From contig OZ242274.1 of NCBI GenBank assembly GCA_965207375.1, forward strand, positions 704,001 to 768,000: a stretch of DNA of 64,000 nucleotides. The letters are read 5' to 3'. Each line of letters begins with the position of its first letter. The stretch's first letter is position 1. This stretch comes from Nitrosopumilaceae archaeon (GTDB lineage Archaea > Thermoproteota > Nitrososphaeria > Nitrososphaerales > Nitrosopumilaceae). Below are positions 792-55,970 of this stretch, in pieces. The notes below the pieces were generated by a model. That model did no database searches. It had not been told where the DNA came from and worked only from the letters and a program-made list of their open reading frames with translations. Made by a program: the position numbers and the translations under genes.

Positions 792-890
792 TAGACTTCA
801 TGCACAATTGATCAACTTAAAATAAAATTTTCAAATTAAGGCTAAAAATTAAGCATTTTTAATTCAAAATTTGATTATGCATAAGGTCTA
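792..890. repeat. 99-bp MITE-like element (family B, halves A+B) with TAGACYTCATGCA...TGCATAAGRTCTA inverted ends
   Basis: 93/99 identical to 55872-55970; imperfect terminal inverted repeats. Confidence 0.8.
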
Positions 891-949
891 GTATAAGGTG
901 ATATGATTTTAGATTAAGATGTCTATATCTGTCACCTCTTTGATCTGAT

Positions 950-1730
950 CAGCTAAGCGAAATGTGGCCTAAATCCTAGTCTGCGGCGGCTTGGACTGAC
1001 GTATCATCTACATTGTATCTACTGAGAAAAACTCACGATCACACAATACCAGACGAACTCTTATTCCCAAATCAGACAGTGTTTTGAGCAGAAAATTCAC
1101 TGATTTAGGCACGGAATCAAGCATTTTGAGATGCATTGCAGCAAGGACTACTCTCCTAGTATCATCCACACAGTGAACCGTTATGTAACGCCAAGTATGT
1201 CGTGCCGTTTTTGTATTTGGAACGGGTCAGCTCCTCCCCATGTGTCCTGTCATAACGGCATATGAGATGTAGGTCAATTGCAACTGTAATCACCTTCTTT
1301 GGAATCTTTCCTATTTTTTTGAGAATTTCAATCTGTCTTGCTATCTGTGATTGGAAAACGTCTTGTACTGATTCCTGTGTAATCCCTTTGATTGCAGATG
1401 CATACCACCTGTCAGATGGCATATTGCTGTTTTTTTGTTTTACTGCATTTGCACATCCTCCTACGGAGGCATCCATGATAGCAGCCCTCAACATTCTGGT
1501 GTTAAGATCATCGACTCCATATATCGTATTGCCCCTGACTGACCAAGTAGTGCATGCAAGCATGTTTTTGGCACCAGATGCAGCATTTTGATATAATCGT
1601 GGGTTGTTTAATAGTTCACGGCTCTGTTTGGTTTTTTGTCTTGACACTGAAAATTATCGAGCCACCCCTATTGATCTGTTTGCATTTTGGGGTAGATTTT
1701 GGCCTATTTTGCCCACATTTCGCTTAGCTG
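950..1730 (-). mobile_element. Internally deleted ISH3-family IS (defective copy of 47907-49153)
   Basis: TIRs CAGCTAAGCGAAATGTGG/CCACATTTCGCTTAGCTG; 781 bp versus 1247 bp for the intact copy; no TSD visible. Confidence 0.9.
976..1647 (-). pseudogene. ISH3 transposase pseudogene
   Basis: N-terminus nearly identical to 47991..49127; frameshift near 1190 and loss of about 460 bp of the C-terminal region. Confidence 0.88.
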
Positions 1731-1802
1731 ATTCAATTTACGAAAATTGGACAAGGACAATTCTAACAAAGAAATTAATGAAAGTAACAAAATCAGCAAT
1801 TC

Positions 1803-2702
1803 ATGCGTTTTGCAGTTACAGGCGGAGCAGGTTTTATTGGAAGTCATCTCACACATCATCTAGTAAAGCAGGGCCATGATGTAGTTGTAATTGACAATAA
1901 ATTCCGTGGAAGGCTAGAAAATCTGTCTGGTGTTTTAGACAGGATTGAATTTCACACTTTGGATATCTTAGATACTAAGGCACTGAATTCTGCTTTAAAA
2001 GATGCAGATGGTATTTTCCATCAAGCCGCATTAACGTCTGTTTCAGAATCATATACTAAAGAAGACAAGTACAAGCTTGTAAACGTCACTGGAACCGAAA
2101 ATATTTTTAAAATTGCCAAGGAGTTTAATCAAAAGGTTGTTTATGCAAGCAGCTCTAGTGTTTATGGAAATACCGAGAAACTTCCCATAAAAGAGGACAC
2201 TACACGAAACCCAATCAATCCCTACGGGTTGACCAAACTAGAGGATGAAATTTTGGCACAAAAATACTCTCAAAGTGGTTCAGAAATTATCGGACTGAGA
2301 TATTTTAACGTATTTGGAAAGGGTCAGACTCTTGATTATGCGGGAGTCATAACAAAATTCCTTGAACGGATTCAAAGTGCTAATCCACCTATAGTTTTTG
2401 GCGATGGTAGTCAATCTAGGGATTTTATTTTTGTAAAAGACGTTGCACGGGCCAATCTAGCAGCCATGCAGGGCAATGTTTCTGATGGATTCTTCAATAT
2501 TGGAACCGGAAATCTAACTACAATCAAGCAGCTTGCAGAAAAGATGATTTTTCTTTCTGGAAAGAATCTTGAACTGTCTTTTGATAAATTACCTGATGGA
2601 GACGTACGTTCTAGCCAGGCCGATGTGAGTTTGTCTCATGATTTGCTGCATTGGAGGTCTGAAACCAGTCTAGAATCTGGCCTGTCCACATTTTTTACGT
2701 AG
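1803..2702 (+). CDS. NAD-dependent epimerase/dehydratase (GalE/WbpP-like UDP-hexose 4-epimerase)
   Basis: GGAGFIG, ASSSSVYG, YGLTK (YxxxK), LRYFNVFG, RDFIFVKDVA. Confidence 0.9.
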   Translation: MRFAVTGGAGFIGSHLTHHLVKQGHDVVVIDNKFRGRLENLSGVLDRIEFHTLDILDTKALNSALKDADGIFHQAALTSVSESYTKEDKYKLVNVTGTENIFKIAKEFNQKVVYASSSSVYGNTEKLPIKEDTTRNPINPYGLTKLEDEILAQKYSQSGSEIIGLRYFNVFGKGQTLDYAGVITKFLERIQSANPPIVFGDGSQSRDFIFVKDVARANLAAMQGNVSDGFFNIGTGNLTTIKQLAEKMIFLSGKNLELSFDKLPDGDVRSSQADVSLSHDLLHWRSETSLESGLSTFFT

Positions 2703-3645
2703 ACTTTACAAGATCTTCATAAAATTTCATATATTCTGGCAATAATGACTCCCATGTGAAATTTTTTGTAACAAATTCATATCCGTTTTGTGCTAATCTT
2801 TGCAGATTTTTGTCATTTAATGCGCCATTTATTGCGTTTAGCAATTCTTCTGAATCATCAGGCTCGACTAAAATCCCATTTTTATTATTTGATATTAATT
2901 CGGGTATGCCTCCAACCGTTGTTGCAACTATTGGCACTTTTAGATAAAATGCTTCTTTAATTACGTGTGGACTGCTTTCGGCTCTTGAAGGAACAACCAT
3001 CAATTGAGATTCCTTTAATTTGATCATTGCATCTCTCCAGGACATATCTGTACAGTATATTACATCAGCATTTATTCTGGATTCAATTTTTTTTAAGATG
3101 TCTATGCCTTTTTCATAACTGTTCCTGCCTACATATACGACCTGTCTGTCTTTTTTTTCAACATCTGGAATATCTTTGAATTTTTCTGGATCTAGGGGCG
3201 TATAAAGACATTCAAATTCAACTCCAAGCTTTTCTTTGTATTGTTTTTGTACAGCTTTTGAATCCGTACTTAGTTTATCTGCATATTTTAGCGCTTTAAT
3301 TTCAACGCTCTTTGATACAGATCCGGCAGTTTTTGAATACATCATACCTATTTGTTCTGAATATACGCCGTAAAGTGACAAAATTTTCTTTTCAGCCTTG
3401 CAGTATTTCATTACAAATGCTGAAGGAACGTTAAATGCATGGACTACATCAAATCTTTCAGTTAGAAATATCGCCTTTATAATACCAAAAAAAACGAAAC
3501 TTAGATTTTTGAGTTTTTTAATTGGTATGTGCGGAACATGCATTAATTTTACATCAAATCCATGCTCTCTTAGCTTGTCTGCCACTCTTTGTGCATGGGC
3601 TCCTGTGCCTCCCTTGTATGTGGAGGCAATAAATAAAATTTTCAT
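2695..3645 (-). CDS. Glycosyltransferase family 4
   Basis: GGTG near the N-terminus, YVGR..EKG, PSRAESSPHVIKEA, VGGIPELI. Confidence 0.9.
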   Translation of the reverse strand: MKILFIASTYKGGTGAHAQRVADKLREHGFDVKLMHVPHIPIKKLKNLSFVFFGIIKAIFLTERFDVVHAFNVPSAFVMKYCKAEKKILSLYGVYSEQIGMMYSKTAGSVSKSVEIKALKYADKLSTDSKAVQKQYKEKLGVEFECLYTPLDPEKFKDIPDVEKKDRQVVYVGRNSYEKGIDILKKIESRINADVIYCTDMSWRDAMIKLKESQLMVVPSRAESSPHVIKEAFYLKVPIVATTVGGIPELISNNKNGILVEPDDSEELLNAINGALNDKNLQRLAQNGYEFVTKNFTWESLLPEYMKFYEDLVKST

Positions 3646-3769
3646 TTTCTAATTTTAATTATATGTATATGATAAATCTTGTCTATGAGAGAATTGTGTT
3701 GTGTAACAATGCTAATCTAAATATGGAATATTCTATATAGTGTGATATTGTCGTAAATTGTGAGAAAAG

Positions 3770-4756
3770 ATGAGGTTTCTGATAATAGGTTTAGGTTCAA
3801 TGGGAAAGCGCAGAATACGAAATTTAATTTCTCTTGGATATCATAATATCGCCGGATATGATATAAAGAGAGAAAGAATGTTAGAGGCTAAAAAAAAATA
3901 CAGCATTGACATTTTAGAGAAAAATAATTTGTACAAAGAAAAAACTGATCTGGTCATAATTTCATCTTCCCCTGACTCACATTTGGAATATGTAAAGCAA
4001 GCATCTAAAAGACAAATTCCATTTTTCGTAGAAGTAAACACAAGCGTTTCAGATATTCAAAGTATAATTAAATTGCAAAAAAAATACCGTGTTTTGGCAA
4101 TTTCTAGCATGACAATGAAGTTTCATCCGGCAATTATCAAAATAAAAAAAATTATAGAATCTAAAAAGATGGGTAAATTTTGTTTTTTAACATATCATTC
4201 TGGAGAGAATCTAGAAGATTGGCATCCTTGGGAGCAAGTCGGCGACTATTATGTTGGAGATATTAAAACAGGCGGGGGAAGAGATCAGGCAGTTTTTGAG
4301 CTTGAATGGATATTTTGGCTTTTTGGCCTACCTAAAGAAATAACTGCAAACACTAAAAAATTATCGAAAATACCTGCAAAAATTTTTGATACATACCAAA
4401 TGAGCTTATCTTTAAGAGATATTCCAATGGCACAAATTATCGTAGACGTAATTCAACGACCTGCAAATAGAATTTTACGTATAGTCTGTGAAAATGGACT
4501 CATCACATGGGATTGGATTGATGGAAGTGTAAGAACATTTAATTCTAAAACAAATTATTGGCAGGAAATTTTTTATGGCGATGGATACAAAGGATTCAGC
4601 GTAGAACAAATGTATCAAGATGAAATTAAAAATGTAATAAAATCTGTTAAAGAAAATAAAAATCATGTCTCAAGTTTTGAATTAGAACTAGCTGCTGCAC
4701 AATCAGTCATTTCTGCTGAGAAAAGCAGTATACAAAAGAGGACTATAAAGATTTAA
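3770..4756 (+). CDS. Gfo/Idh/MocA family oxidoreductase
   Basis: IIGLGSMGKRR, SSPDSH, WHPWE..Y motif shared with the two paralogs in this window. Confidence 0.88.
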   Translation: MRFLIIGLGSMGKRRIRNLISLGYHNIAGYDIKRERMLEAKKKYSIDILEKNNLYKEKTDLVIISSSPDSHLEYVKQASKRQIPFFVEVNTSVSDIQSIIKLQKKYRVLAISSMTMKFHPAIIKIKKIIESKKMGKFCFLTYHSGENLEDWHPWEQVGDYYVGDIKTGGGRDQAVFELEWIFWLFGLPKEITANTKKLSKIPAKIFDTYQMSLSLRDIPMAQIIVDVIQRPANRILRIVCENGLITWDWIDGSVRTFNSKTNYWQEIFYGDGYKGFSVEQMYQDEIKNVIKSVKENKNHVSSFELELAAAQSVISAEKSSIQKRTIKI

Positions 4757-5795
4757 CATCTGTCTTTTTTAATGCATAACGGGATCTTAATGTTTTTTGA
4801 GCTTTTTTATTTATAATTTTTTCAAAATAAGATGCAGACAAACCAATACATGGTCTCAAACAAGCAATGTTTTCAAGGGTGAATCTCTCACCTTTTTTGA
4901 TCTCTTTTGTTGTGAAAATTGAACGTCTTTGGATTATTCGTGTATCTATTTCTGATTTTTCAACTTTTTTAGTGCCTGTTCCCAATGCAGTTTTGATTTG
5001 TTTGATTTGTTCAACCATCTCCTTGAATTCAGAAGGATTTAGGGAATGAGGATGATCGGGTCCGGAATTTTTTTTATCATCGGTAAAATGTTTTTCAATT
5101 ATACATGCTCCCAAGGCCACACTTGTCAATGGAACCACTATTCCTGCAGTATGATCTGAATATCCATAATTGAGTTTAAATTGATCTCCCATTTTTATCA
5201 TGGCTTTTACATTTGAATCCTCTAAAGGGGAGGGATATTGAGTTACAGACTGCATCAGAATTATTTTGTTATTATTTGTAGATTTGATTGCATTAATTGC
5301 CTGCTTGATTTCTTGAATCGAACTTGCACCGGTTGGCAGCAAAATGGGTTTATTTTTCCTTGCAATATATTTTAGAAATTGAAGATATGTGATATCACCA
5401 GAACCTATCTTAAATGCAGGAATTCCTATTGAATCTAGTAAATCAACGGCTTCATAATCATATGGAGTAGACATGAAATCGATTTTTCTTTTTTTAGCAT
5501 ATTTTGCAAGTTTTTCATGCCAATCCCTTGGAAATTCAGCATCACGGTAAACCTGCCACACCGGTTTTTTCCATTTTGATTGAAATGAGCGCGATTTTTC
5601 AAATCCTTTTTCAGATAATAGTTTGTCAGTTAAAAAACTCTGAAATTTGGCACAGTCTGCACCAGAATCTTTGGCAAGATCAACAAGTTTTTTTGCCTTT
5701 TCAAAACTACCATCAAAGTTTGAGCCTATTTCAGCAATTATGTATGTGGGTTTATCTGGTCCAAGAATTTTACTTCCTATTTTAATTTGCTTCAA
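4743..5795 (-). CDS. neuB: N-acetylneuraminate (nonulosonate) synthase family, NeuB/PseI with SAF domain
   Basis: IIAEIGSNFDG, AKFQ, FKIGSGD, GYSDHT, IEKHFT, GPDH, RRSIF...LRPCIG. Confidence 0.93.
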   Translation of the reverse strand: MKQIKIGSKILGPDKPTYIIAEIGSNFDGSFEKAKKLVDLAKDSGADCAKFQSFLTDKLLSEKGFEKSRSFQSKWKKPVWQVYRDAEFPRDWHEKLAKYAKKRKIDFMSTPYDYEAVDLLDSIGIPAFKIGSGDITYLQFLKYIARKNKPILLPTGASSIQEIKQAINAIKSTNNNKIILMQSVTQYPSPLEDSNVKAMIKMGDQFKLNYGYSDHTAGIVVPLTSVALGACIIEKHFTDDKKNSGPDHPHSLNPSEFKEMVEQIKQIKTALGTGTKKVEKSEIDTRIIQRRSIFTTKEIKKGERFTLENIACLRPCIGLSASYFEKIINKKAQKTLRSRYALKKTDVKSL

Positions 5796-7720: not shown

Positions 7721-7905
7721 ACCTATGCCGATGTCTTTTCAATAGTAATTATTCGTTTCTTGCAGAACAGTCAATTTACAGGCAGATCAAATGAGGAGAA
7801 ATACGGTAACACTTTGACTTTCTAAAGTTGCGTGCATAAAAATACCAAATCTCTGATTTTCACATTTGATTCAGGCATGGCACTTTGTCAAATAGATCAA
7901 TTACT

Positions 7906-8004
7906 CAGCTAAACAAAATGTGGATAAAACAGGCCAAAATATACCCCAAAATGTAGCGAATAATATTGGCGGGGTAAGAATTTGGTTCACATTTCGCTTA
8001 GCTG
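7906..8004 (+). mobile_element. ISH3-derived MITE (family A), 99 bp
   Basis: Ends CAGCTAAACAAAATGTGG...CACATTTCGCTTAGCTG; body matches the IS left end; no TSD retained. Confidence 0.8.
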
Positions 8005-8692: not shown

Positions 8693-10187
8693 GTACTTGT
8701 TCACCTATTTTTGAGCACTTTTGGCCCTAAATGTACCGAACCAGCTCTGCTAGATAATCCTGTCCCAGATTCTTCCAGGTAGTAACACACGTATACAGAT
8801 TGCCTCTACGCTCCATACTTTTTTCAGATCTGAGACATCCACGTATTCTCCTGCACACAACATACTCACGCAGGCTCTGCTCTGCAAGATTGCTTGTAGA
8901 TGGTATACGAGGGTCTATGACAAACCGGAACATGTCAGGTATGGCCCGTGACAGTTTTGCTACAAATTTACCCACAATTTCATCATTGGCATACCTTTTG
9001 ACAAGGTTACGTGTTCTTTTTTCCAATTGTACAGCATATGATTCTCTGTAATCAGGTGGTTTGTCTAGGACATGTTTGCCGTCATGGTATATCTTTTGTA
9101 GGCATTGCAGTGTATTTTTTGCAATTTTAGAATCTGGATTCTTTTGTGATATTGTTTTGATTTCACGTATTAGGTGCGCGTTACATCTCTGGATGATATA
9201 TCTGCGGTATGGAGGCCATCCGTCACAGGTTATGATTATATCTTGTGAGTCACCTATTATTTCCTTGAGTACGTTTGCTCCCCTGCTGGGATTAATTATA
9301 TAGAAATTCTCACTTGTAATTGGATTATGAAACGTCCACAACCATATAGTCTTTCCATGCAGTCGCTCTGATGTCTCATCTGCTATCAGAATCTCGGCTT
9401 CCTGTATCTTTTCTTTTATCTCATTTGCAGGCACAAATAACGCATCAGAGACTGTATCTATGATGTTTTGAATACCTCCTTCAGATATTTCGATTCCACG
9501 TCTTTTCATGGCCTCCTTGTTCATACGTACCGGCATGCGATGTATGTGGTTATCCATTATCTCCTTTATCACTTCATTTCCAAACTGACCTTTTTTTGGA
9601 ATGTCAACCTTTGGTGTAATGTCAGTAGCTCCACAGCAGTTGCAATGATACCCATGAATCTTGTGCTTGCAAGTACGTGGAGGAGGAGTTTTTACAATAT
9701 CAGTTATTATCCTGATTTTGGTGTCTGTATGGTGTATGTCTTGAGAACCACACTTGGTACACGTGTCTAATTTGTGCTCTTTTTCTTCATCTACTTTGAC
9801 CTTGCGGGTTACACCTGTGCGACCAGGTTGTCCTCCCTGTTTTTTTCCAGTAGATTTTTTGTTCTCTGCACGTATTTTGCGGTCCTGCTTGCGTGTAATG
9901 GAATCCTTAGATGGAGGAGTATTGGAATTGTCATGATAGTTGTCACGTTTGGTAAGCTCTTGAATTTTTTTATCTTTTTGTAGTAGGAGGTCATCTTTTT
10001 GTAATATGATTTTTTGTAAACTTGATACTAGAGATTCAAGAAGAAGGACTTTTCGGTGTTCCTTTTTGTATGCACTTTTCCAGTTGATGGTACTCATTAT
10101 ACAACTTGTGAGTCAGAATGATTTAGATCTGATGGTGATCAAAATTTGAACAAATGGTGAAATTTTAGGCACAACGTGAACAAGTAC
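8693..10187 (-). mobile_element. IS66-family element (single-ORF, ISBst12-like), 1495 bp
   Basis: TIRs GTACTTGTTCAC/GTGAACAAGTAC; 8-bp TSD CATCTTTT at 8685-8692 and 10188-10195. Confidence 0.95.
8727..10097 (-). CDS. IS66 family transposase
   Basis: NSNTPPSKD, GGQPG, CxxC zinc finger, ADET, CDGW, QRCNAHLIR, TSNLAEQSLR. Confidence 0.95.
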   Translation of the reverse strand: MSTINWKSAYKKEHRKVLLLESLVSSLQKIILQKDDLLLQKDKKIQELTKRDNYHDNSNTPPSKDSITRKQDRKIRAENKKSTGKKQGGQPGRTGVTRKVKVDEEKEHKLDTCTKCGSQDIHHTDTKIRIITDIVKTPPPRTCKHKIHGYHCNCCGATDITPKVDIPKKGQFGNEVIKEIMDNHIHRMPVRMNKEAMKRRGIEISEGGIQNIIDTVSDALFVPANEIKEKIQEAEILIADETSERLHGKTIWLWTFHNPITSENFYIINPSRGANVLKEIIGDSQDIIITCDGWPPYRRYIIQRCNAHLIREIKTISQKNPDSKIAKNTLQCLQKIYHDGKHVLDKPPDYRESYAVQLEKRTRNLVKRYANDEIVGKFVAKLSRAIPDMFRFVIDPRIPSTSNLAEQSLREYVVCRRIRGCLRSEKSMERRGNLYTCVTTWKNLGQDYLAELVRYI

Positions 10188-10294
10188 CATCTTTTCTTTA
10201 TATTATTATACAGTTTTTCTAAAATATATATAATAATCTAGCCAAAAGCTGTAAGCTCAGGTGTGATCCATGTAGCTCAGGTGTGACCATATAA

Positions 10295-10606
10295 TCAAAG
10301 ATTGCATTGTTTCTCATCCTGTACAATTAATGCAGTATCACGCCAGCATCTGGCCTGTTCATAGCCGTGCTTTACCATTAATTCATTAAACAATGTATTA
10401 CTCTTGGTTGGTTTTTGCAGTTTGGTACAGAACTTAATGTATTCTGTATTGACTGCAGCCACCGTAGCATGATTCTCATTTTCCTTTTTTGGTCGTAATC
10501 TAGTCAGTATGAACAAAGTTGCAGTGTCGCTATGGTTCTGCCATAGGTCCTTGACCAGTGGTATATCCTGTGTGTAGGTAAAACCCTTTTCTATCACATT
10601 TTGCAA
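10295..10606 (-). pseudogene. C-terminal fragment of a phage/plasmid primase-helicase (P4/D5-like winged-helix tail)
   Basis: W..HSDT..LF, EYIKFC..LQKP..SN..FN..M..HGY pattern typical of primase C-termini; the N-terminal part is absent. Confidence 0.5.
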
Positions 10607-10633
10607 GTGATATGTGAGTATTCATGTCCTGTC

Positions 10634-10725
10634 TAAATTTTTATTTTATCTTTTGACGGTAAAGTAATTTTATGTCTCAAACTAAAAAATTTTATTTTGA
10701 ATTGAACAATTGTGTATGCAGGCTA
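10634..10725 (-). repeat. Chimeric family-B element (halves A+B')
   Basis: 10632-10677 matches 53318-53363 (41/46); 10678-10725 is the reverse complement of the left half of 792-890. Confidence 0.7.
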
Positions 10726-10759
10726 ATTGATCAATTCAAAATTCGGTTGTGTATAAAAT

Positions 10760-11734
10760 CTAATGAACAGCCTTTTTCATTAATTCAAAATCATTGTCAA
10801 TCATTGTTTCAACAAGCTTGTTAAAAGACATAGAAGGTTCCCAACCTAATTCATTTTTTGCTTTAGTCGCATCCCCTATCAGGGCATCAATATCTTGAGG
10901 TCGAAAATATTTTTTATCAGTTTCAACAAAATCTTCCCAATCCCCTAATCCTGAATATTTGAAAGCATATTCTAGAAAATCTTTTACGGAATAGGATTTT
11001 TTAGTAGCTATTACATAGTCAGATGGTTTGTTCTGTTGTAACATCAACCACATTGCTTTTACATAATCTCCTGCAAAACCCCAATCCCTCACAGCATTAA
11101 TATTTCCTAAAAATATTTTTTTTTCAAATCCATATTTTATTCTTGCAATATTGTATGTGATTTTTCTTGTAACAAATTCCAATCCTCTTAAAGGACTCTC
11201 ATGATTAAATAATATTCCACAGGATATGAACAAATTATATGCTTCTCTATAATGTTGAGCCATTTTATGGGCAAATACTTTAGAAACACCATAAGGACTA
11301 GCTGGATCCATTCGTGAAAGTTCATTTTTTATTTTATTAGAATTTCCAAACATTTCACTTGATGATGCCTGATATACTTTAGTATGAGAGCTGTATGCTT
11401 TAACTGCTTCAAATACATTTAATGCACCAATAGCATTAACATTTGTAGTAAGAATGGGTTGATCAAACGAAACTCCAACAAATGATTGTGCTGCAAGATT
11501 ATACAATTCATCTGGTTGAATGTTACTAATTGTTTTGTTAATAGAGATTGAATCCGTTATATCGGATTTGACGAGTTCAATTTTATCTAAAATAGCAAAA
11601 TGTTCTAATCGTTCAAATAAGCGATGACTGGTTCTACGAAAACCACCATATACTTTATAGCCTTTTTTAAGTAAAAAGTCTGCCAAGTAGGTACCGTCTT
11701 GTCCAGTTATACCTAAAATTAGAGCTGATTTCAT
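10760..11734 (-). CDS. gmd: GDP-mannose 4,6-dehydratase
   Basis: GITGQDG.YL, YNLAAQSFV, QASSSEMFG, SPYGVSK, ILFNHESPLRG.EFVTRK, RDWG. Confidence 0.96.
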   Translation of the reverse strand: MKSALILGITGQDGTYLADFLLKKGYKVYGGFRRTSHRLFERLEHFAILDKIELVKSDITDSISINKTISNIQPDELYNLAAQSFVGVSFDQPILTTNVNAIGALNVFEAVKAYSSHTKVYQASSSEMFGNSNKIKNELSRMDPASPYGVSKVFAHKMAQHYREAYNLFISCGILFNHESPLRGLEFVTRKITYNIARIKYGFEKKIFLGNINAVRDWGFAGDYVKAMWLMLQQNKPSDYVIATKKSYSVKDFLEYAFKYSGLGDWEDFVETDKKYFRPQDIDALIGDATKAKNELGWEPSMSFNKLVETMIDNDFELMKKAVH

Positions 11735-12570
11735 TTTATTATCAATCCGTTTTCAATCAGCTTGTCTAAAAAGTGTTTAAACCCTTTTCCTCCATGTTCA
11801 TGACCTTTCCAAACTTCAATTGCAAAACTTTTATCTTCAAGTTTATTTAACATAGGAATTATTTTTGTAAATGGCAAATCTCCTTCACCAAAAGCTAATC
11901 CTTCTCCTTCCGAACCTTCTGCATCTGAAAGATGATAGTGTGTCACATAATTTTTAATTTTATTTAATTCATCGATAAGAGATACATTAATTTTATTACA
12001 ATATAGTTGAGAATGGCATAAATCAAAACAAACATTCAAATTTGTTTCATTACAGTATTTTATCAAATCTTCAGATTGTAAAAAGACGTTACTATTCCAT
12101 CTGCCACCATAAAACCAAGCATAAGGTGGCATATTCTCAAGCAAAAAATTTACGCCGGAAATATCAAGTTGTTTAACTGAATCAACGATCATATTTTTCA
12201 TTTTTTGGATATTTTCTAATGATAAATCCTCAAGAGAATAACCACCAGGATGAACAATTATACTAGGTATGCCTCTAAAATGGTCTCCTAATTGAATTGT
12301 TTTGTCAATTGCTTTTTGAATCAATTCTATACTAGTTTCTTTTGAATGAATTTGACTGGTTTCTTCCAAAGCGACAAAATCAACAATTTTTCTATCAAAA
12401 TATTCGTAGCAATGTACAATCAATTGTTGTTCAAAATTTGAATCTAATTCAAGATTGAGATCACTGTCAGAAAAGTGAAATTCCAATATTTTTGGATTAA
12501 ATTTCATCATGTCTACTATGTCATGTTTACGAACTTTCATTCCTAAGATCATTTTAACAAAACATTTCAA
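11731..12570 (-). CDS. Xylose-isomerase/AP-endonuclease-2-like TIM barrel protein (NeuB-associated)
   Basis: IVHPGG, LENMPPYAWFYGG, CFDLCHSQL, HLSDA, EG...GEG, EVWKGH. Confidence 0.8.
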   Translation of the reverse strand: MKCFVKMILGMKVRKHDIVDMMKFNPKILEFHFSDSDLNLELDSNFEQQLIVHCYEYFDRKIVDFVALEETSQIHSKETSIELIQKAIDKTIQLGDHFRGIPSIIVHPGGYSLEDLSLENIQKMKNMIVDSVKQLDISGVNFLLENMPPYAWFYGGRWNSNVFLQSEDLIKYCNETNLNVCFDLCHSQLYCNKINVSLIDELNKIKNYVTHYHLSDAEGSEGEGLAFGEGDLPFTKIIPMLNKLEDKSFAIEVWKGHEHGGKGFKHFLDKLIENGLIIK

Positions 12571-12879
12571 ATTACGTTTTATTTATATTGTCAAAATAAC
12601 AGTTAACCCACCAACAATGCAAAATCCTTTGCAATATGGGCAGAGGTGCAGGTTTGATCTAAAATTCTAACATAAGGACAAAATTGAACTAAACGTAGCA
12701 AATTAGATTCCATATCATTATGAGCAAACCAATACAACCGCACTATGAATTACAACTCACTGATTGGATGCGTACTGTGAGTTTTGGCCCAAGATTCTCA
12801 ATCATGTAGTATTATCTAGTTTTGATTCCCCTCTTTTCATATGAGCCTTGTTTGGACTGCTTTTTGATGAATGTCGTTA

Positions 12880-13959
12880 CTAGTGATCTACTGGTGGATT
12901 AACTGTAGTTGAATTCATATCTTCCTCTAGCAGATAATCTCCTTTTCTAATTTTTCGTGAAGATTTTCTTCCAATCATATCGTAAAAATATTGTGCCGAT
13001 AATCCTTTATCTGGACCTTTAACATCCATGTTTTCTTCTGAAAAAAGTTCACCTTCATCAATATCAGACAAACAAACTATACTCTTTGAGATCACTTCTC
13101 TTTGTAAAACTTCTGCACGTGTCATTTTTTTGATTGGTTTACCTTTTGCTTTTTCAGATAGTCTAATCATGGTAACTAATTTTTCGAATTCGTTTGGTTC
13201 CAAAGATGATGAATGATCCAAGCCTTTCATTTTTTTATCAAGAGTGATATGACGTTCTATGATTGTAGCACCAATATTTGCAGCAGTTAAACTTCCTATA
13301 ATACCTGTTTCATGATCACTAAATCCTACCTGTACATCAAATTTTTGTCTAAGTACAGGAATTAAATTAACATTTAGTGATTCAATAGGTGATGGGTAGG
13401 TACTATTTGCATGAAGTAAAATAAATTTTGCATCTAATTTTTTTACAAAATTAACCATTTTTTCTACTTCTTCAATTCTTGACATTCCTGTTGATATTAT
13501 CATAGGCTTTCCTGTTTTTGAGACGTATTTTATTAATGGAAAATTTGTCATATCTCCTGATGAAATTTTATATGCTACTATTCCAAGATTCTCTAAAAAA
13601 TCAACGCTTGGAATATCCCATGGAGTGCACAGAAACGTAATTTTTCTTTTTTTACAATAATTAAAAATATCAAGATAATTTTCATTACTTAATTCTACTT
13701 CTTTTAATTCTGCAAGTAATATTTCAAAACCTTGACTTTCAGAATTTGGATTTTCTAATGCATGTTTTCTGTACAAGCTTTCAAGGTTTCTTTTTTGGAA
13801 TTTTACAGCATCAGCACCTGATTTAACGGATTCGTCAATTAATTTTTTTGCAACAGACACATTACCGTTATGATTTATTCCAATTTCTGCAATAATATAA
13901 CAGGGATGATCCAAACCGATCATTTTATTTTCAATACTTATAGTGTTATCAAATTCCAA
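12880..13959 (-). CDS. neuB: N-acetylneuraminate (nonulosonate) synthase family with SAF domain
   Basis: IIAEIGINHNG, AVKFQKR, KISSGD, LHANSTYP, GFSDHE, IERHITLD, GLDH. Confidence 0.93.
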   Translation of the reverse strand: MEFDNTISIENKMIGLDHPCYIIAEIGINHNGNVSVAKKLIDESVKSGADAVKFQKRNLESLYRKHALENPNSESQGFEILLAELKEVELSNENYLDIFNYCKKRKITFLCTPWDIPSVDFLENLGIVAYKISSGDMTNFPLIKYVSKTGKPMIISTGMSRIEEVEKMVNFVKKLDAKFILLHANSTYPSPIESLNVNLIPVLRQKFDVQVGFSDHETGIIGSLTAANIGATIIERHITLDKKMKGLDHSSSLEPNEFEKLVTMIRLSEKAKGKPIKKMTRAEVLQREVISKSIVCLSDIDEGELFSEENMDVKGPDKGLSAQYFYDMIGRKSSRKIRKGDYLLEEDMNSTTVNPPVDH

Positions 13960-13986
13960 TTTTATTATCTTTTGTATAGTTTGAGT

Positions 13987-15324
13987 TTAATTATATTTTT
14001 TGATTGATGGTAACTTCATAGACCAAATTGTTTTTGGAGGATTTCCATCTAAATTGGCTTCAAAATTATCATTTTTGATTTTATCATTTATTATCTTACA
14101 AACATTTTCAAAAGAATGAAGGGTTTTTTTTATGTCATCTTCTGAATGAGAATAGCAGATATATGATGCGCCTAGAATGGACATAAAAATATTTTGTTTA
14201 ACCATTTCTTGTAAAACAAAAGATTTCATGTGTAGTGATTCAGTACCTGAAGAATCAAGACAACGTAGATTCATACGAACCGGATAGCCAGTCATTTTTG
14301 CATTAATGTTATTTTCATCTGCAATCCTATTCCAACCATTAAATAGGATTTTACCCATTTTCCAACAATGATGAATTGTATTTTTTTCTTTCATTTCGGT
14401 GATTACCGCCTTGGTTCCAGCTAAAGACAATGTTTCACTATTGTTTGTAGATGAAACCCATAAATCATCAAATGTTTTCATGAATTCCGTAGGCCCTGTT
14501 ATTGCTGAAAGAGGCAATCCGTTTGCCATTCCTTTTCCAAAACATACTAAATCACCTTTAATTCCAAGATATTTTTGTGCTCCTTCTAAATCGAATCTAA
14601 ACCCAGTTACTATTTCATCTAAAATTAATAATGAATTATTTTCACTAGCGATTTTTCTTACCTTTTGTAAAAAGTCATTATCAGGTTCTTCAAATTGGAT
14701 GGGTTCTAAAACAATTGCTGCAATTTTATTTTGATTATCTTCAAAAATTTGTTCGAGTCCCTCAGAATCGTTATAGTCAAAAATTTTGATTAGATTCTCA
14801 TTAAATTTTGGAACACCACCATCTCTACTAACCATGGCTGCTTGCCAATCGTGCCAGACTCCACCTGTTCCACAATATGCTATAATGTCTTTTTTTGTAA
14901 ATGCTCTTGCAGCTCTAACTGCAGCTGTAACAGCGTTTGAACCAGATTTTTCAAATTTAACCATATCAGCAAATGGAATTACTTGACTTATCAACTCAGA
15001 TAATTCAACTTCAATTTTGTGAGGTATCGAAAATAAAATCCCTTGATCTAATTGATCCTTTATTGCTTGATTCACTGAATTATAATTATAACCTAAAGTT
15101 ATAGGTCCTAAACCCATTAAATAATCCAGATATTCATTTCCATCGACATCTGTGAAATGAGCACCATTGCCAGATTGAACGTACAACGGATATACATTTT
15201 CTATAAAAGCAGTTGCGGCCCTACTAAACGTACCAGTTAGATGAGGTATAATTTTTTCTGCACGAAGCTTATATTGAGATGAAATATTCAAAGATTTTTT
15301 TTTTGATACATAATTAATATCCAA
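13987..15324 (-). CDS. Class III PLP aminotransferase (GSA-aminomutase-like, polysaccharide-cluster type)
   Basis: DVDGNEYLD, KSGS.A...AVR.AR, LDEIVTGFR, FGKGMANG. Confidence 0.9.
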   Translation of the reverse strand: MDINYVSKKKSLNISSQYKLRAEKIIPHLTGTFSRAATAFIENVYPLYVQSGNGAHFTDVDGNEYLDYLMGLGPITLGYNYNSVNQAIKDQLDQGILFSIPHKIEVELSELISQVIPFADMVKFEKSGSNAVTAAVRAARAFTKKDIIAYCGTGGVWHDWQAAMVSRDGGVPKFNENLIKIFDYNDSEGLEQIFEDNQNKIAAIVLEPIQFEEPDNDFLQKVRKIASENNSLLILDEIVTGFRFDLEGAQKYLGIKGDLVCFGKGMANGLPLSAITGPTEFMKTFDDLWVSSTNNSETLSLAGTKAVITEMKEKNTIHHCWKMGKILFNGWNRIADENNINAKMTGYPVRMNLRCLDSSGTESLHMKSFVLQEMVKQNIFMSILGASYICYSHSEDDIKKTLHSFENVCKIINDKIKNDNFEANLDGNPPKTIWSMKLPSIKKYN

Positions 15325-15555
15325 GTTAATTTAAAATAATTTTCAATGATATTTGTTCTTTTCCAATGAATGTTCTGTTGGGTTAAAGAGTTCTAAACCA
15401 AATTTTCTTTGTAAAGTGAGACATTTTGAAAAGTGTGATCATTTGTTTTTACCATCAACTTTGATTAATGTCTGTTCTACAGGTGTTTTTCCAAGTGAGC
15501 CATGCTTTTTTTGTGAAATTATAGTATGTCTTCATTTCATCAATTATTGGAGGAT

Positions 15556-15654
15556 CAAATTTCTTGTATCTGTTAACGTTGTTTTGAATTTATGATAATT
15601 TCAGGCTGGAAATTAAGCATTTTTGATTAAAAATTTGATTATACATAAGATCTA
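15556..15654 (+). repeat. Chimeric family-B element (halves A'+B)
   Basis: 15556-15602 matches the reverse complement of 53364-53410 (41/47); 15603-15654 matches 55919-55970 (46/52). Confidence 0.72.
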
Positions 15655-15663
15655 TTGTACATG

Positions 15664-15766
15664 CAGCTAAACAAAATGTGGGTAAAATAGGCAAAAATCT
15701 GCCCAGAAATGCAAGCAGAGCGACAGAGGTGGGGGACAAGAATTTGCGTCACATTTCGCTTAGCTG
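15664..15766 (+). mobile_element. ISH3-derived MITE (family A), 103 bp
   Basis: ISH3-type TIRs; 5-bp TSD ACATG on both sides. Confidence 0.9.
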
Positions 15767-15785
15767 ACATGAGTTTACTGATTGG

Positions 15786-17566: not shown

Positions 17567-17734
17567 GATTTATTCAATATTGTATTTAATAAAAAATTTG
17601 TTTTTTAAAAATCCTATGTAGCCATGAAAGTAGTTTATCTCTGTAATACTGCCATAATTTACAAGTGTATGTTGCATCATGTTACCTCCTTATTTTATGA
17701 GGTTTTGTACATTTCTACTCCACGTATGTATTGT

Positions 17735-17835
17735 CAGCTAAGCGAAATGTGACCTAAATTCTTACCTCGCCTCTGTTGTTCTGTTTGCATTTCGGAATAG
17801 ATTTTGGCCTATTTTGCACACATTTCGTTTAGCTG
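17735..17835 (-). mobile_element. ISH3-derived MITE (family A), 101 bp
   Basis: ISH3-type TIRs; 5-bp TSD ATTGT on both sides. Confidence 0.9.
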
Positions 17836-18048
17836 ATTGTGCTAGACAGTTATTTATCCGATACAAAGTTTTCACCTAGATTTGAAAATTAGACCTTTGC
17901 ATAGCAATCATAAAAAAGAATGGAACTATAATCTTGGAAATATGTACGTGTATCGGCCAGGACAACAATCTAGTCACTTGTGACATCAATATGCCTATCT
18001 CTTTTTATGTGGAAATGAACCCATTCATTCAAGTTAGGATTGAAGTAA

Positions 18049-30473: not shown

Positions 30474-30716
30474 TTGAGAGAGGATTAAAAATCATTTCAA
30501 ACTGCTGATTTGTAATCTTTGTTCCAATAAGGAAATCAGATTATAAGAATAGCTCTACAGATTTCTGGGAAGAGGCCAGATTTACTGTTCTTATATTTCA
30601 AATTCTAGGCACGGTTCACGTAAACTCGTCATGCAGGACCTTGCCTCTTACGATCTCTGAGTAGGGATAAAGCCTAAGAAACATATCATGTTTTTGGTAA
30701 TTATACACGTCACACC

Positions 30717-30831
30717 TAGATTTGTCCTATTCTTTGGCGACATTACAAATTTGTGTACAAAATCACTATTGATTTCAAAACAACGCCAACTGTTGAACAA
30801 TTCAACTAAAGATCACGCTACAAAAAATCTA
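30717..30831. repeat. Degenerate family-B-like intergenic element
   Basis: TAGATTT...AAATCTA ends and internal ATTTCAAAACAAC motif shared with 46673-46766 and 53320-53410. Confidence 0.45.
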
Positions 30832-46430: not shown

Positions 46431-46672
46431 CAGTTATCTGTGAGTAGTTATTATTCTAGCTAACTAATGGAGGCAGGTCCGTCCAAAATTCATGTATTCT
46501 GAGCCATCAGATCTAGATTCTACCGATTTCTCTCATATTCTAGAATTACAAACTGATGATGATTGGAAATTATACAAGTAATAAAATCATACCTGAATAG
46601 TCAGCAACATCTTTCTAATGATCACAATAACGACACAAAGTAGCTAAAAGTTGTAATTGTCAATATCATATC

Positions 46673-46766
46673 TAGACTTTTTTTATTCTTTGATTATATC
46701 TCGAATTTGTGCTCAAAATCAATATAATTTCAAAACAACATCCATTATAAAAAATTGACAAGTTTA
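46673..46766. repeat. Degenerate family-B-like intergenic element
   Basis: TAGACTT...AAGTTTA ends, AATTTGTGCTCAAAAT core and ATTTCAAAACAAC motif; right end overlaps the stop codon of 46764..47813. Confidence 0.45.
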
Positions 46767-47813: not shown

Positions 47814-47906
47814 TATCTAGTCCCACAAGTAATTTGCCCCTATATAGAGCAACCATTAGCATATCTGTAAGAATTGTATCCAGAATTATATCTCTAGGCC
47901 TATGAT

Positions 47907-49153
47907 CAGCTAAGCGAAATGTGGGCAAAATAGGCCAAAATCCACCAAAAATGCAAACAGATCAATAGGGGCGGCTCCAGATGATTTTCAGTGTCCAAAC
48001 AAAAAACCAAACAGAGCCGTGAACTATTAAACAATCCACGATTATATCAAGATGCCGCATCTGGTGCCAAAAACATGCTTGCATGTACTACTTTGTCAGT
48101 CAAGGGCAATACGATATATGGAGTTGATGATCTTAGCACCGGAATGTTGAGGGCTGCCATTATGGATTCCTCCGTAGGAGGATGTGCAAATGCGGTAAAA
48201 CAAAAAAACAGCAACACGCCATCAGACAGATGGTATGCATCTGCAATCAAGGGGATATCAGAGGAAACAGTACAGGACGTTTTCCAATTACAGATAGCAA
48301 GACAGGTTAAGATTCTCAAAAAAATGGGAAAGATTCCAAAGAAGGGGCTTACAGTTGCAATGGACCTACACCTCATATGCCGTTATGACAGGACATATGG
48401 GGAGGAGTTGACCCGTTCTAAATACAAAAACGGCACGACATACTTTGAGCGTTACATGACGGTTCACTGTGTGGATGATACAATGAGAGTCGTTCTAGCT
48501 GCAATACATCTCAAAATGCTTGATTCCGTGCCTAAATCGGTGAATTTTCTGCTCAAAACACTGTCGGATTTGGGGGTAAAAGTTCGTCTGGCATTATGTG
48601 ATCGTGAGTTTTTCTCAGTGGATACAATGCAAATGCTGATTCAAAACGACGTATCCTTTTTGATACCTTGCAGAAATACACCAAATGTAAAATCTGCACT
48701 AGACGAGTATAGTAGTAAAAAACGTGATGTAACATCAGAGTGCACCCTACAAAACGACTATCATTCTGTACCGTATACAATGATGATAGAAAGAAGAAAG
48801 GGATCAAAGGATACTGATGTTGCCGAGGAAAAATACATCGGCTTTGCAACCAACTGTAATACTGTAGACGTTACAGAATATGCAAGTAGGTGGGGGATAG
48901 AATCAGGATACGGCAAGATAGAGGAATGCAGGGCCAAGACACGAATCAAAGATAATGTATCAAGAATGCTGTGTTTTTATTATTCGCTGATACTGTACAA
49001 CGAGTGGATAATTATCAGGGCTATTCTTTGTGATGATACAGCAAGTCAGAGTATTATGACAATGTTAGTTTTCAAAGTACAAATGGATTTTGAAGCGATA
49101 CGTCAGTCCAAGCCGCCGCCATGGTAGGATTGGGGCCACATTTCGCTTAGCTG
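47907..49153 (+). mobile_element. Intact ISH3-family IS, 1247 bp
   Basis: 18-bp perfect TIRs CAGCTAAGCGAAATGTGG; 5-bp TSD ATGAT. Confidence 0.93.
47991..49127 (+). CDS. ISH3-family DDE transposase
   Basis: AMDLH, CDREFFS, FATN, YASRWGIESGY (YREK-like motif). Confidence 0.92.
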   Translation: MSKQKTKQSRELLNNPRLYQDAASGAKNMLACTTLSVKGNTIYGVDDLSTGMLRAAIMDSSVGGCANAVKQKNSNTPSDRWYASAIKGISEETVQDVFQLQIARQVKILKKMGKIPKKGLTVAMDLHLICRYDRTYGEELTRSKYKNGTTYFERYMTVHCVDDTMRVVLAAIHLKMLDSVPKSVNFLLKTLSDLGVKVRLALCDREFFSVDTMQMLIQNDVSFLIPCRNTPNVKSALDEYSSKKRDVTSECTLQNDYHSVPYTMMIERRKGSKDTDVAEEKYIGFATNCNTVDVTEYASRWGIESGYGKIEECRAKTRIKDNVSRMLCFYYSLILYNEWIIIRAILCDDTASQSIMTMLVFKVQMDFEAIRQSKPPPW

Positions 49154-49258
49154 ATGATGAACCTAGTCATTTGCGCCAAATTTTCATAAATGATTAATAC
49201 TTGTGTCATACAAAACATTGTATGCAGTCACATTTGAAATTATATTTATTTTCTGGCA

Positions 49259-53299: not shown

Positions 53300-53319
53300 G
53301 TAAGTGTTAACGTCATCTC

Positions 53320-53410
53320 TAAATTTTTATTCTATCTTTTGACAGCAAAGTAATTTCATGCCTACAATTACCACAAATTCAAAACAACGTTAACAGATAC
53401 AGGAAATTTA
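53320..53410 (-). repeat. Family-B element (halves A'+B')
   Basis: One half matches 10632-10677, the other matches 15556-15602 in inverted orientation. Confidence 0.72.
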
Positions 53411-53869: not shown

Positions 53870-54286
53870 TCAAATCCCTGCTGCCAATTTTGGATGAAAT
53901 GCTGCAACTCCAATAAATGAACTAGTCCTTAGAAGCATTTTATCAAATGTTACTAGAACAAAGTTTCTTGCCTGACACAAACTCAGAATTTTATTATCCC
54001 CGTTATGACAACTTTGAAACTGTTCTGTCAGATTGTGTGCATTTAAAACATCTTGATTATTGCTTTTAGAAAATTCCACCTTTCTTCCCAAACACAAGGT
54101 TATCTTTGAAATTATTTTTTCAGCAGAATATCCCCTTACTCTGTTTACCTCACCTAATACTATATCAGATAGGACTATTTTGATTGATTTTCCACGGAGT
54201 TTTGATTTGAGACTTTTTGCAACTTTTGGTTTTTCCATGATATCGATAACGACACAGGAATCAAGTGCGACCTTTTGTTGATTCAT
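53870..54286 (-). CDS. PIN domain protein (putative ribonuclease/toxin)
   Basis: VALDSCVVI, VLGE, GDNKIL, LVTFDKML acidic tetrad. Confidence 0.85.
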   Translation of the reverse strand: MNQQKVALDSCVVIDIMEKPKVAKSLKSKLRGKSIKIVLSDIVLGEVNRVRGYSAEKIISKITLCLGRKVEFSKSNNQDVLNAHNLTEQFQSCHNGDNKILSLCQARNFVLVTFDKMLLRTSSFIGVAAFHPKLAAGI

Positions 54287-54316
54287 GATACGAATTAGAC
54301 TAGGAGGTTATTATAT

Positions 54317-54339
54317 TATATAACAATACTATGCATACT
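54317..54339. promoter_or_regulatory. 23-bp site TATATAACAATACTATGCATACT upstream of the PIN gene (identical copy at 55052-55074)
   Basis: Exact repeat read from the sequence; regulatory role inferred. Confidence 0.55.
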
Positions 54340-54709
54340 TTACATACTAATTAACATGCTAGACAAGTATAACAGTATAGTTTCACTGCTGTTTGCATAT
54401 GAAATTGTATAACCTGTCACAGATTCGAGTCCAAAAATTCATGGGTAGATGCCATACCCTTATCAAGCAAAGGATTTGAAAACAATATAAAAAATGCAAC
54501 ATCAGTTTGGTAGAGCCAGTCCCTACACAGGACGATATCAATGTACAGTTACCAAACTGTACCAGACCACAATCTATTCTGTACAGATACAGTCTTGTTA
54601 GATGTAAATTATACAAGTATCTCTTTTGTACATTCAACCCAGATACACAGGCATATGCCCAATTAGTTAATCTATATTCTAACAATCTACATCGCCAGAA
54701 TCCTGCTGT

Positions 54710-54964
54710 TCATCTACGCCTGTATCTAAAACCCCATTTGTGACGCCTCAGATATCTCTCCACATCTCTTTCGGATTTTTTCTTGTTTCTGTAGAATTTT
54801 TTCGGATCACCTTTGCCATATTTTACATATTTTGGATCACAGTCCTCATGAATCTTTTTGTGACATTTGTCGCATACGGGAATTATTTTTTGTGGAAAGT
54901 AGGTGATGTGATGAAATATCGTGGCCACATCTTTGCACAGTTTGCATTTTCCCTTGTTTTCCAT
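54710..54964 (-). CDS. Small HNH-like zinc-binding endonuclease
   Basis: CKLC.....HHITY......VCDKCHKKIH. Confidence 0.65.
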   Translation of the reverse strand: MENKGKCKLCKDVATIFHHITYFPQKIIPVCDKCHKKIHEDCDPKYVKYGKGDPKKFYRNKKKSERDVERYLRRHKWGFRYRRR

Positions 54965-55051
54965 TTGATACTTACCAAGTTTTTTGTATCTGTGAAATGA
55001 GTTTTGGTTCTATTTGTTGTTTATTCTATTCAGTTGTCTGAAAAATTATTA

Positions 55052-55074
55052 TATATAACAATACTATGCATACT
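55052..55074. promoter_or_regulatory. 23-bp site at the start of the CARF-wHTH gene
   Basis: Identical to 54317-54339; lies directly before GTG at 55075. Confidence 0.55.
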
Positions 55075-55809
55075 GTGTCTGGTGAAAATCTGCGTATACA
55101 CATTGCCCCTGTAGGTTATGAAGTTGACAGGATTGTACTTTCTGCAAAAGAGAAAAAGGCAGACAGAGTCTATCTGTTGGTTCATGAGAATCCTAGTGCA
55201 GACAAGGCAGTCTCATTTTATGATCAAATTTCAAAAGAACTAGAAAAGCTAAACATCGAGGTAATAAGGCAATACCATGACAGATTGGACCTGTTTAAGA
55301 TAATAAAATCAATCAAAGAAATCATCGATAAAGAAAAGGGAAACATCATCTATGTGAACCTAGCAGCAGGAAGCAAGATTCAGGCAATAGCAGGCATGAT
55401 GGCATGCATGATGTTCAATGACAATCAAAATGTTCATCCATTTTATGTAGAGGCGCAAAATTATACAAGATTTTCAGGAAAGCCGATATCTACTGGAATC
55501 AAAGAAATACAGACTATGCCAACCTATGAAATCAAAAAGCCTCAACCAAAACACATTGCCGCATTGAAAATAATCAAAGAAAATGGGGGCAGAATTTCCA
55601 AAAAAGAGATGGCAGAGCTTGCAAAAAAAGAAAAGCTGATTATAGTAAACGCTGAAAATCCAAACCAGGCCACCTTTGCAAGCCTGGACAAAAACATCAT
55701 TGATGTACTAGAAAATCAATGGCATTTTGTAAGGGTAGAAAAAATCGGCAGAACCAGATGGATAAACATTACAAAAGATGGCAAAAATGCCACAGAATTT
55801 TTAATCTGA
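55066..55809 (+). CDS. DUF6293/HFX_2341-like CARF + winged-helix transcriptional regulator
   Basis: RIHIAPVGYE.DRI, ADRVYL, YVNLAAGSK, FYV.A..Y, C-terminal wHTH with GR...I.IT..G. Confidence 0.82.
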   Translation: MHTVSGENLRIHIAPVGYEVDRIVLSAKEKKADRVYLLVHENPSADKAVSFYDQISKELEKLNIEVIRQYHDRLDLFKIIKSIKEIIDKEKGNIIYVNLAAGSKIQAIAGMMACMMFNDNQNVHPFYVEAQNYTRFSGKPISTGIKEIQTMPTYEIKKPQPKHIAALKIIKENGGRISKKEMAELAKKEKLIIVNAENPNQATFASLDKNIIDVLENQWHFVRVEKIGRTRWINITKDGKNATEFLI

Positions 55810-55871
55810 TTTTTTAGGTGTCATGGGTTACATCTATTGAAAATATTTCATATCCTCCTAACTTGTTATAG

Positions 55872-55970
55872 TAGACCTCATGCACAATTGATCAATTCAA
55901 AATAAAATTTTCAAATAAAGGCTAAAAATTAAGCATTTTTAATTCAAGATTTGATTATGCATAAGATCTA
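55872..55970. repeat. 99-bp MITE-like element (family B, halves A+B)
   Basis: 93/99 identical to 792-890. Confidence 0.8.

Follow-up and report, generated by a model that had tools for sequence, protein, structure and literature searches.

The sequence and census data show that the roughly 100-bp intergenic elements found along a 64,000-nucleotide (nt) stretch of a Nitrosopumilaceae archaeon (assembly GCA_965207375.1, contig OZ242274.1, positions 704,001 to 768,000; the window, with the contig referred to as C1) belong to two unrelated families of MITEs (miniature inverted-repeat transposable elements), here called AB and A'B' after their halves. Two elements in the window join unlike halves, A+B' and A'+B, and we consider it probable that these chimeras are by-products of MITE pile-up in a glycan island that varies, together with deletions or an inversion of the illegitimate kind, rather than dedicated recombination sites. 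The original prediction, made from the letters of the window, had compared the four combinations of halves to attP, attB, attL and attR and had proposed either recombination sites or MITEs that recombine at a fixed core, shuffling or inverting glycan and defence modules. From this proposal the MITEs have been retained, each family now with a candidate partner insertion sequence (IS), and the fixed core and the att-like reading have not.

AB is a MITE with a 3-bp target duplication. It is ~99 bp long, contains no open reading frame (ORF) and has terminal inverted repeats starting AGACCTYATGCA; directly outside its AGAC..GTCT ends, a 3-nt direct repeat of the form A-N-T is present at fixed offsets in nine of the 11 full copies. 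One AB copy (C1:117546-117642) lies within a decayed IS66-like copy, which it interrupts with TAT on each side, and another, at window positions 55872-55970, is identical at 99 of 99 positions to C1:111684-111782, the flanks of the two being unrelated. The candidate partner of AB is an IS of 1,514 bp (C1:390387-391900) with an intact gene (C1:390596-391708) for a DDE_Tnp_4-type transposase of 401 amino acids (aa). The terminal repeat of AB stands at the start of both ends of this IS (identity at 15-16 of the first 16 nt; 16-17 nt shared), and ACC flanks it on each side as a 3-bp duplication. When the 17-nt AB end was scanned across one genome per species, it was found many times in Nitrosopumilaceae and Nitrosopumilus records. 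One match is a 1.4-kb element whose inverted ends enclose a 398-aa protein with DDE_Tnp_4, DDE_Tnp_1 and HTH_Tnp_4 domains; this protein matches 21 places in the genome of the window, the intact 401-aa gene being one of them. AB-like elements of 80-102 nt are present in eight of the 80 loci retrieved from the scan, all within three Nitrosopumilaceae/Nitrosopumilus records. A relative of a different genus (G058) has four AB-like copies in which the ends and the B half are the same and the A half is different. Based on these similarities, we suggest that AB is the non-autonomous partner of the IS5/Harbinger-like (DDE_Tnp_4) IS, which may mobilize it. The pair parallels the IS5-superfamily/PIF-Harbinger elements and their Tourist-like MITEs in having a DDE_Tnp_4 transposase with HTH_Tnp_4, a 3-bp duplication and a MITE that shares the terminal repeat of the IS; it differs in that the target of AB is A-N-T, whereas Harbinger elements make their 3-bp duplication at T-W-A, and in that only the first 16-17 nt are common to IS and MITE.

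A'B' is a MITE of a different kind, with an 8-bp target duplication. It is ~101 bp long, likewise without an ORF, and its ends start GTATCTGTTAACG (GTAT/GTAA). At one fixed offset pair, 13 of 36 copies are flanked by an 8-bp repeat that is perfect or has a single mismatch, other offsets reaching at most three; among the best-preserved copies, the repeat is found at the canonical offsets in 11/23, and in 14/23 if nearby offsets are allowed. The candidate mobilizer is an IS66-family IS of 1,495 bp on the minus strand of the window (8693-10187, transposase 8727-10097; PF03050, E 2e-33), of which there are 10 copies with at least 98.8% identity, all on C1 and nine of them with a perfect 8-bp duplication. 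The ends of A'B' match those of this IS at 14 of 17 positions, the IS ends starting GTAC. Because only the ends are common to both, A'B' is not a simple internal deletion of the IS66-like element. An 8-bp duplication and GTA.. ends are typical of IS66-family elements of the single-ORF type (ISfinder), and the window IS and A'B' both conform to this; the difference lies in the ~17 nt of ends that are all A'B' shares with the IS. The one IS66-like copy of the ten with non-matching 8-bp flanks, C1:354156-355650, shows what would be expected if two copies of the IS had been rearranged with each other.

Across the A'B' copies, left and right halves are correlated (Mantel r 0.53, reached by none of 2000 permutations), and among 2,915 left/right flank pairs no clear reciprocal flank exchange was found, the matches being of low complexity or single ones with one mismatch. 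Two copies with a young-type A' half and a 43%-diverged right half, at C1:69497 and 2048189, were considered as products of exchange and rejected, the right inner part varying family-wide. In 100 sampled genomes of the family no A'B' copies were found, only matches of 21-38 nt.

The five main copies of the original prediction were recovered with profile searches (nhmmer), and their make-up agrees with what had been proposed. Full AB copies lie on the plus strand at 792-890 (ends AGAC..GTCT; E 7e-26) and at 55872-55970 (3-nt flank repeat AGT; E 8e-27) and are identical to each other at 93/99 positions. A full A'B' copy with IS66-like ends, lacking a matching 8-bp flank repeat, is present on the minus strand at 53300-53400 (E 1e-24). 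The A+B' chimera (10614-10725, minus strand; half-profiles of A, E 7e-7, and of B', E 1e-10) consists of an A half at 10686-10725 followed by an A'B'-type central hairpin and B' half at 10614-10685; its first 61 nt match AB copies at 47/60 positions and its last 71 nt match the A'B' copy at 58/71. The A'+B chimera (15566-15654, plus strand; half-profiles of A', E 3e-12, and of B, E 1e-10) has an A' half running from the outer end at 15566 to ~15600 and a B half at ~15601-15654, followed by the flank ATT; it matches AB at 46/52 positions, reproducing the earlier count, and at 50/58, and its first half matches A'B'. Between the two chimeras lies a segment of 4.9 kb (10763-15565, minus strand) in which Pfam identifies genes for a dehydratase, an AP_endonuc_2-fold protein, NeuB and a class-III aminotransferase, i.e. 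a sugar/nonulosonic-acid pathway.

Four more degenerate members had also been proposed. Two of these, near 30717-30831 and 46673-46766, are diverged A'B' copies on the minus strand (30695-30797, E 1e-12; 46649-46740, a weak match with E 2.5e-7 for the A'B' profile and 6e-5 for the B' half-profile). A third, at 10726-10762 (plus strand), is a weakly matching piece of an AB end (a member of repeat family D5; 80% against the B end; B half-profile, E 6e-4), and for the fourth, 7823-7905, no element profile gave a match even at E<=10. The assertion that two such members overlap stop codons holds for one, the TAG stop of the gene at 10760-11734 being derived from the AB-end fragment 10726-10762, and is not confirmed for the other, the copy at 46649-46740 stopping 24 nt short of the stop codon at 46764.

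Compared with shuffled sequences, the parent forms fold as long hairpins (z -2.3 to -4.8) and the chimeras do not (z -0.3 to +1.0). The long hairpin of 792-890 has z -3.2 on the plus strand and -4.8 on the minus strand, the parent elements folding on either strand, and 53300-53400 has z -2.9; in the chimeras, the terminal pairing of both parent forms is lost (z +0.4 for 10614-10725 and +1.0 for 15566-15654).

Half-profiles of A, B, A' and B', from which the two chimeras had been left out, confirm across the entire assembly that the halves occur in all four combinations. In total, 93 match groups were found, i.e. 15 A+B, 41 A'+B' (39 pairs and one tandem pair), one A+B', one A'+B and 36 single halves, so that mixed elements make up two of the 58 two-half elements genome-wide, both in the window, 4.9 kb apart and mutually inverted. 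This census is far beyond chance, with many copies per family and E-values down to 1e-25. The full profiles give 20 AB and 62 A'B' loci, every one on C1, and the window, which is 3% of the chromosome, holds four of the former and five of the latter. Outside ORFs of at least 100 aa, which make up 81% of C1, lie 81 of the 82 loci. They are spread over tandem, divergent and convergent intergenic DNA in the numbers 11/7/2 for AB and 33/17/11 for A'B', the available DNA being 225/110/77 kb, and across the 82 loci there is neither a preference for a type of intergenic DNA nor a relation between element strand and gene strand. AB and A'B' thus give no sign of a function other than transposition.

The confinement of the elements to C1 is explained by the character of the remaining contigs, C2-C4, which look non-archaeal. 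C1 (2.16 Mb) has 46 tRNA genes and 81% of its length in ORFs of at least 100 aa; for C2-C4 (2.14 Mb) the figures are 14 tRNAs and 16-23%. Tetranucleotide correlations are 0.79-0.81 between C2-C4 and C1, as compared with 0.98 within C1 and 0.98-0.99 among C2-C4, and megablast of C2-C4 against C1 gave zero shared matches. Judging from this composition, C2-C4 look eukaryote-like and are probably host contigs binned with the symbiont, the archaeon being C1. That half of the 4.3-Mb assembly is non-archaeal in character matters to any user of the assembly.

The original prediction held that the switch between halves falls at the same core each time. This claim rests on two junctions only, which lie at different positions, and the core itself is at chance level. 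The AB and A'B' consensuses align centrally over AATTT-N-AGRC-NNN-AAATTA with 14/19 ungapped matches, which 153 of 500 shuffles reach, and the best local score of the consensuses is 24 vs 22.1 +/- 4.1 in shuffles (reached by 648 of 2000). Given that the similarity is at shuffle level, the core is a microhomology between two AT-rich sequences and not a conserved site. In A+B' the central hairpin is A'B'-type (16/20 vs 12/20 for AB-type, by manual count on alignments), and the junction therefore lies 5' of the hairpin, just after the A-type run ending TTTT. A'+B, by contrast, has a 5' stem of A' type and does not turn to B type until past the 3' stem, which places the junction inside or 3' of the loop. 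The junction intervals of the two chimeras thus do not overlap. On the outside, the A half and the B half of the chimeras share the 3-nt flank ATT.

Public sequencing data were used for a comparison between strains. Six public runs contain the stretch, of which four (X1, X4, X5 and X6) were compared as short Logan contigs. Runs X1 and X4 have the same sequence as the window, X1, from which the window may derive, in one piece, and X5 and X6, both from one other study, contain a related strain with ~3% differences (~97% identical). Record 29 of X6 spans 15226-15664 unbroken, and A'+B is therefore present in the related strain; record 23 of X5 spans 15100-15595. Record 17 of X5 (1,040 nt, 30 differences) covers 11667-10686, its match stopping where the A half ends on its inner side, and continues into a tail of 58 nt, of which 31 nt lie on 15564-15594 on the other strand, i.e. 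the outer end of an A' half, and 27 nt are unplaced. Neither X5 nor X6 has depth over 10200-10450, and the region left of A+B' differs between the strains. These contigs argue, moderately firmly, that in the related strain the A half runs within 27 nt into an A'B' terminus, which looks like nesting of MITEs and would be an insertion junction and not a crossover, and a deletion of ~30-60 nt could derive the A+B' of the window from this arrangement. We also considered whether the loose ends of X5 and X6 at 10686, with an AB centre and B half, represent an intact AB copy at this place and rejected it: ordinary AB copies, being ~90% like the A half, would land there. The comparisons support the view that the elements mark places where the glycan island differs between strains.

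As the simplest scenario compatible with the strain comparison, we suggest that the chimeras arose in two or three steps, the order and kind of which we infer from the present-day arrangement: (i) an A'B' copy would have inserted into or beside an AB copy at the border of the 4.9-kb sugar-gene block, (ii) short deletions near the hairpin centres, illegitimate and at the level of microhomology, would have fused unlike halves, and (iii) the block may have inverted between two inverted A'B' copies, separating the two AB halves. Within this explanation we regard step (iii) as an even bet; if it occurred, the inversion would account for the reciprocal types of the chimeras, their inverted orientation and their equal ATT flanks. 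Nesting and crowding of the kind assumed in step (i) are observed in this genome. Besides the AB copy within the IS66-like copy at C1:117546-117642, an element of ~105 nt interrupts the A'B' copy at C1:1580258-1580470, ~15 nt beyond the centre of this copy, whose AAAATTTT duplication is preserved; a MITE of a third family begins 5 nt from the end of A'+B, and the AB-end fragment at 10726-10762 abuts the A half of A+B'.

Several observations weigh against an origin by pile-up and deletion. Reciprocal and inverted chimeras 4.9 kb apart are what would be expected from one reciprocal exchange, and two separate scars at one gene block are a coincidence that only the local crowding of MITEs explains. 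The A' half is flanked by the 8-bp sequence AATTTCTT and the B' half by ATATCACT; being different, these flanks do not demonstrate a single A'B' insertion. The strain evidence comes from short, k-mer-built contigs, with the 27 nt of the tail unplaced and with contigs of other MITE copies landing on the same repeats. As for the families, no matching duplication is present at the canonical offsets in 12 of the 23 best-preserved A'B' copies, a number exceeding the prediction from their own divergence, and AB and A'B' each share only ~17 nt of ends with the ISs by which they are presumably mobilized. Finally, the chromosome has a single gene for a tyrosine recombinase, and this gene has an AB copy on either side, the two in direct orientation (C1:306828-308312).

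Alternatively, both chimeras may have been made at once by a single illegitimate reciprocal inversion. In this scenario, two copies of opposite orientation, one AB and one A'B', would have been broken at or near their hairpin tips and rejoined crosswise, either by microhomology or by tip cleavage and end joining, thereby inverting the 4.9-kb block, and the left site of the related strain would have changed again later. Such an event would fit with the chimeras being reciprocal, mutually inverted, adjacent and the sole two in the genome, with both junctions lying within ~25 nt of the element centres, with the same ATT flank on the A and B halves, and with both parent forms folding as hairpins. 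Nevertheless, we hold it to be unlikely: the related strain has A'+B without A+B', its A half leading to the outer end of an A' half, the two junction intervals do not overlap, the 8-bp flanks of A' and B' are not the same, and the un-inverted order was not found among 30 relatives and 80 metagenome loci. Eleven of 31 genomes (30 relatives and this genome) matched the block, with gene-level similarity only (<=74%), and in none of the 30 relatives were syntenic flanks found; in one of them, G009, three of the block's genes follow each other as here, with different neighbours. Similarly, a metagenome scan with the AP_endonuc_2-fold protein, from which 80 loci (791,200 nt) were kept with a best identity of 87% at the aa level, yielded no close strain, no AB or A'B' match and no un-inverted order.

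Less probable still is site-specific recombination, in which the central stem-loop would be a crossover site, perhaps of the lone tyrosine recombinase, and halves would be swapped to shuffle or invert glycan and defence cassettes. The original prediction, seeing no recombinase in the window, had pointed to a tyrosine or serine recombinase, or an IS with TAGACC ends, elsewhere in the genome; one tyrosine recombinase gene is indeed present, and no serine recombinase or resolvase was found in the genome. PF00589 (Phage_integrase family) has one match place in the genome, an ORF of 368 aa at C1:307040-308143, 397 kb from the window sites. Its translation contains, by eye, Arg, His-x-x-Arg and Tyr motifs, which we take to be the usual ones of tyrosine recombinases, and the nearest solved relative of the protein is an archaeal XerC-like recombinase (E 5e-4). 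The two AB copies that bracket the gene are 91% identical over 112 nt, all four of their 3-nt flanks being ATT, and the gene lies between the RFC and ACS genes at a synteny break, the RFC-ACS distance being 23-46 kb in the four relatives compared. This setting, together with an element centre that has short inverted arms around a 7-8-nt spacer, is what speaks for recombination at the stem-loop. By a rough estimate, the chance that some pair among 15 AB copies lies within 1.5 kb is ~0.15, a figure that does not cover the bracketing of this particular gene; the AB-bracketed recombinase could be a MITE-flanked composite or a product of chance.

Nothing links the recombinase to the chimeras, and the properties of the elements are not those of att sites. 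The parental forms occur as 15 and 41 scattered copies, both carry transposase-type duplications and have partners with DDE transposases, and the two families differ in their ends and in the length of the duplication (3 bp vs 8 bp). Between the families the core shows no conservation above chance level, the two junctions lie at different positions, and, as far as the short contigs moderately firmly indicate, the related strain has one chimera without the other. Nine of the 11 full AB copies keep matching flanks, which implies that flank exchange between AB copies is rare. Homologues of the recombinase are present in 63 of 201 genomes of the family, and at 19 such loci from relatives no flanking repeats of this kind were found; G058 has AB-like MITEs, but no recombinase homologue was found in its genus (0 of 2 genomes). 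Neither a resolvase nor a Y1 (HUH) transposase (PF01797) was found in the genome, the latter in a search whose control detected it in 6 of 14 named genomes. The resemblance to the att sites of tyrosine recombinases and to integron attC sites lies in imperfect palindromes of ~100 bp that border gene blocks in a genome with a tyrosine recombinase gene; the differences are that AB and A'B' are multi-copy, have transposase-type duplications, share no core as partners, have no adjacent recombinase and, in the related strain, form one chimera without its reciprocal. The more specific proposition that the recombinase uses the MITE-borne central stem-loop as a portable recombination site is equally hard to credit. 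If it were true, the spread of the MITEs would seed the glycan island with sites for inversion, deletion and inter-strain exchange of sugar-gene cassettes, and this would be an archaeal cassette-shuffling system with sites distributed by transposition.

Least probable of all is an identity as genes for structured RNAs or as hairpins regulating in cis (terminators, promoters or small RNAs), with the halves as functional modules: the parent forms do out-fold their shuffles and nearly all copies are intergenic, but nothing in the 64-kb window reached the gathering score of an Rfam family, element orientation is unbiased with respect to genes and there is no 3'/5' intergenic preference, both strands fold as expected of inverted-repeat DNA, and target duplications together with IS-like ends account for copies and fold alike.

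In kind, AB and A'B' fit well into what is known of prokaryotic MITEs, among which are Neisseria's Correia elements and the SM1-SM4 MITEs of Sulfolobus. They share with these a length of ~100 bp, the lack of coding capacity, inverted ends, target duplications, tens of intergenic hairpin copies and ends in common with a resident IS; new are the AB and A'B' sequences and the host, a Nitrosopumilaceae archaeon. Mosaic intergenic repeats are known as BIMEs in E. coli, NIMEs in Neisseria and BOX in the pneumococcus. The parallel to these is a loose one, in that short intergenic modules are combined in several ways; in the present case each module is half of one or the other transposon, and mixing is seen in two of 58 elements and at one locus. 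No title or abstract was found in the literature searched that describes MITEs or MITE chimeras in Thaumarchaeota or Nitrosopumilus. In the parts consulted, a 2024 review mentions inversion of Correia elements and no chimeras (PMC10969869), and a 2026 survey gives an IS content of up to 14.95% in a Nitrosopumilus genome (PMC13343696). AB and A'B' are thus ordinary MITEs in kind, belonging to families for which titles and abstracts offered no description. The att-like reading thereby gives way to a pair of new MITE families in an archaeon rich in ISs, one candidate partner IS being present for each family, and the case illustrates that MITE pile-ups can mimic products of site-specific recombination. 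As markers of strain-level breakpoints in a surface-glycan island, the elements bear on the diversification of symbiont cell surfaces.

The island itself is large, extending over window positions 1-47800, and Pfam shows that its pathway genes are duplicated: it contains two NeuB proteins, two class-III aminotransferases and three GFO_IDH_MocA oxidoreductases as well as two CTP_transf_3 cytidylyltransferases, two sulfatases and several glycosyltransferases. The MITE next to A'+B (15660-15769, ends CAGCTAAGCG..; repeat families D3/D4/D8, I16) is context and not part of the chimera. It belongs to a third IS/MITE family, with ends CAGCTAAGCGAAATGTGG, which is represented in the window at 946-1733, 7905-8004, 15660-15769, 17732-17838 and ~47903-49155, i.e. 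by an IS whose DDE_Tnp_1-like gene encodes 378 aa, an inverted remnant and three MITEs of ~100 nt, several of which adjoin AB or A'B' ends. The ~105-nt element inside the A'B' copy at C1:1580258-1580470 has its own inverted ends and a 4-nt repeat and constitutes a fourth small MITE family. A further repeat family of ~90 nt, with at least six copies, is found at the recombinase locus (L035 3417-3525, on the numbering that puts the AB-bracketed recombinase at 3829-5313). Beside the AB copy at 55872-55970, a defence-like trio (55066-58816) encodes an HFX_2341/Csa3-like regulator, an AAA ATPase and a subtilase, and is adjoined by an IS5-type transposase at 58898-59830.

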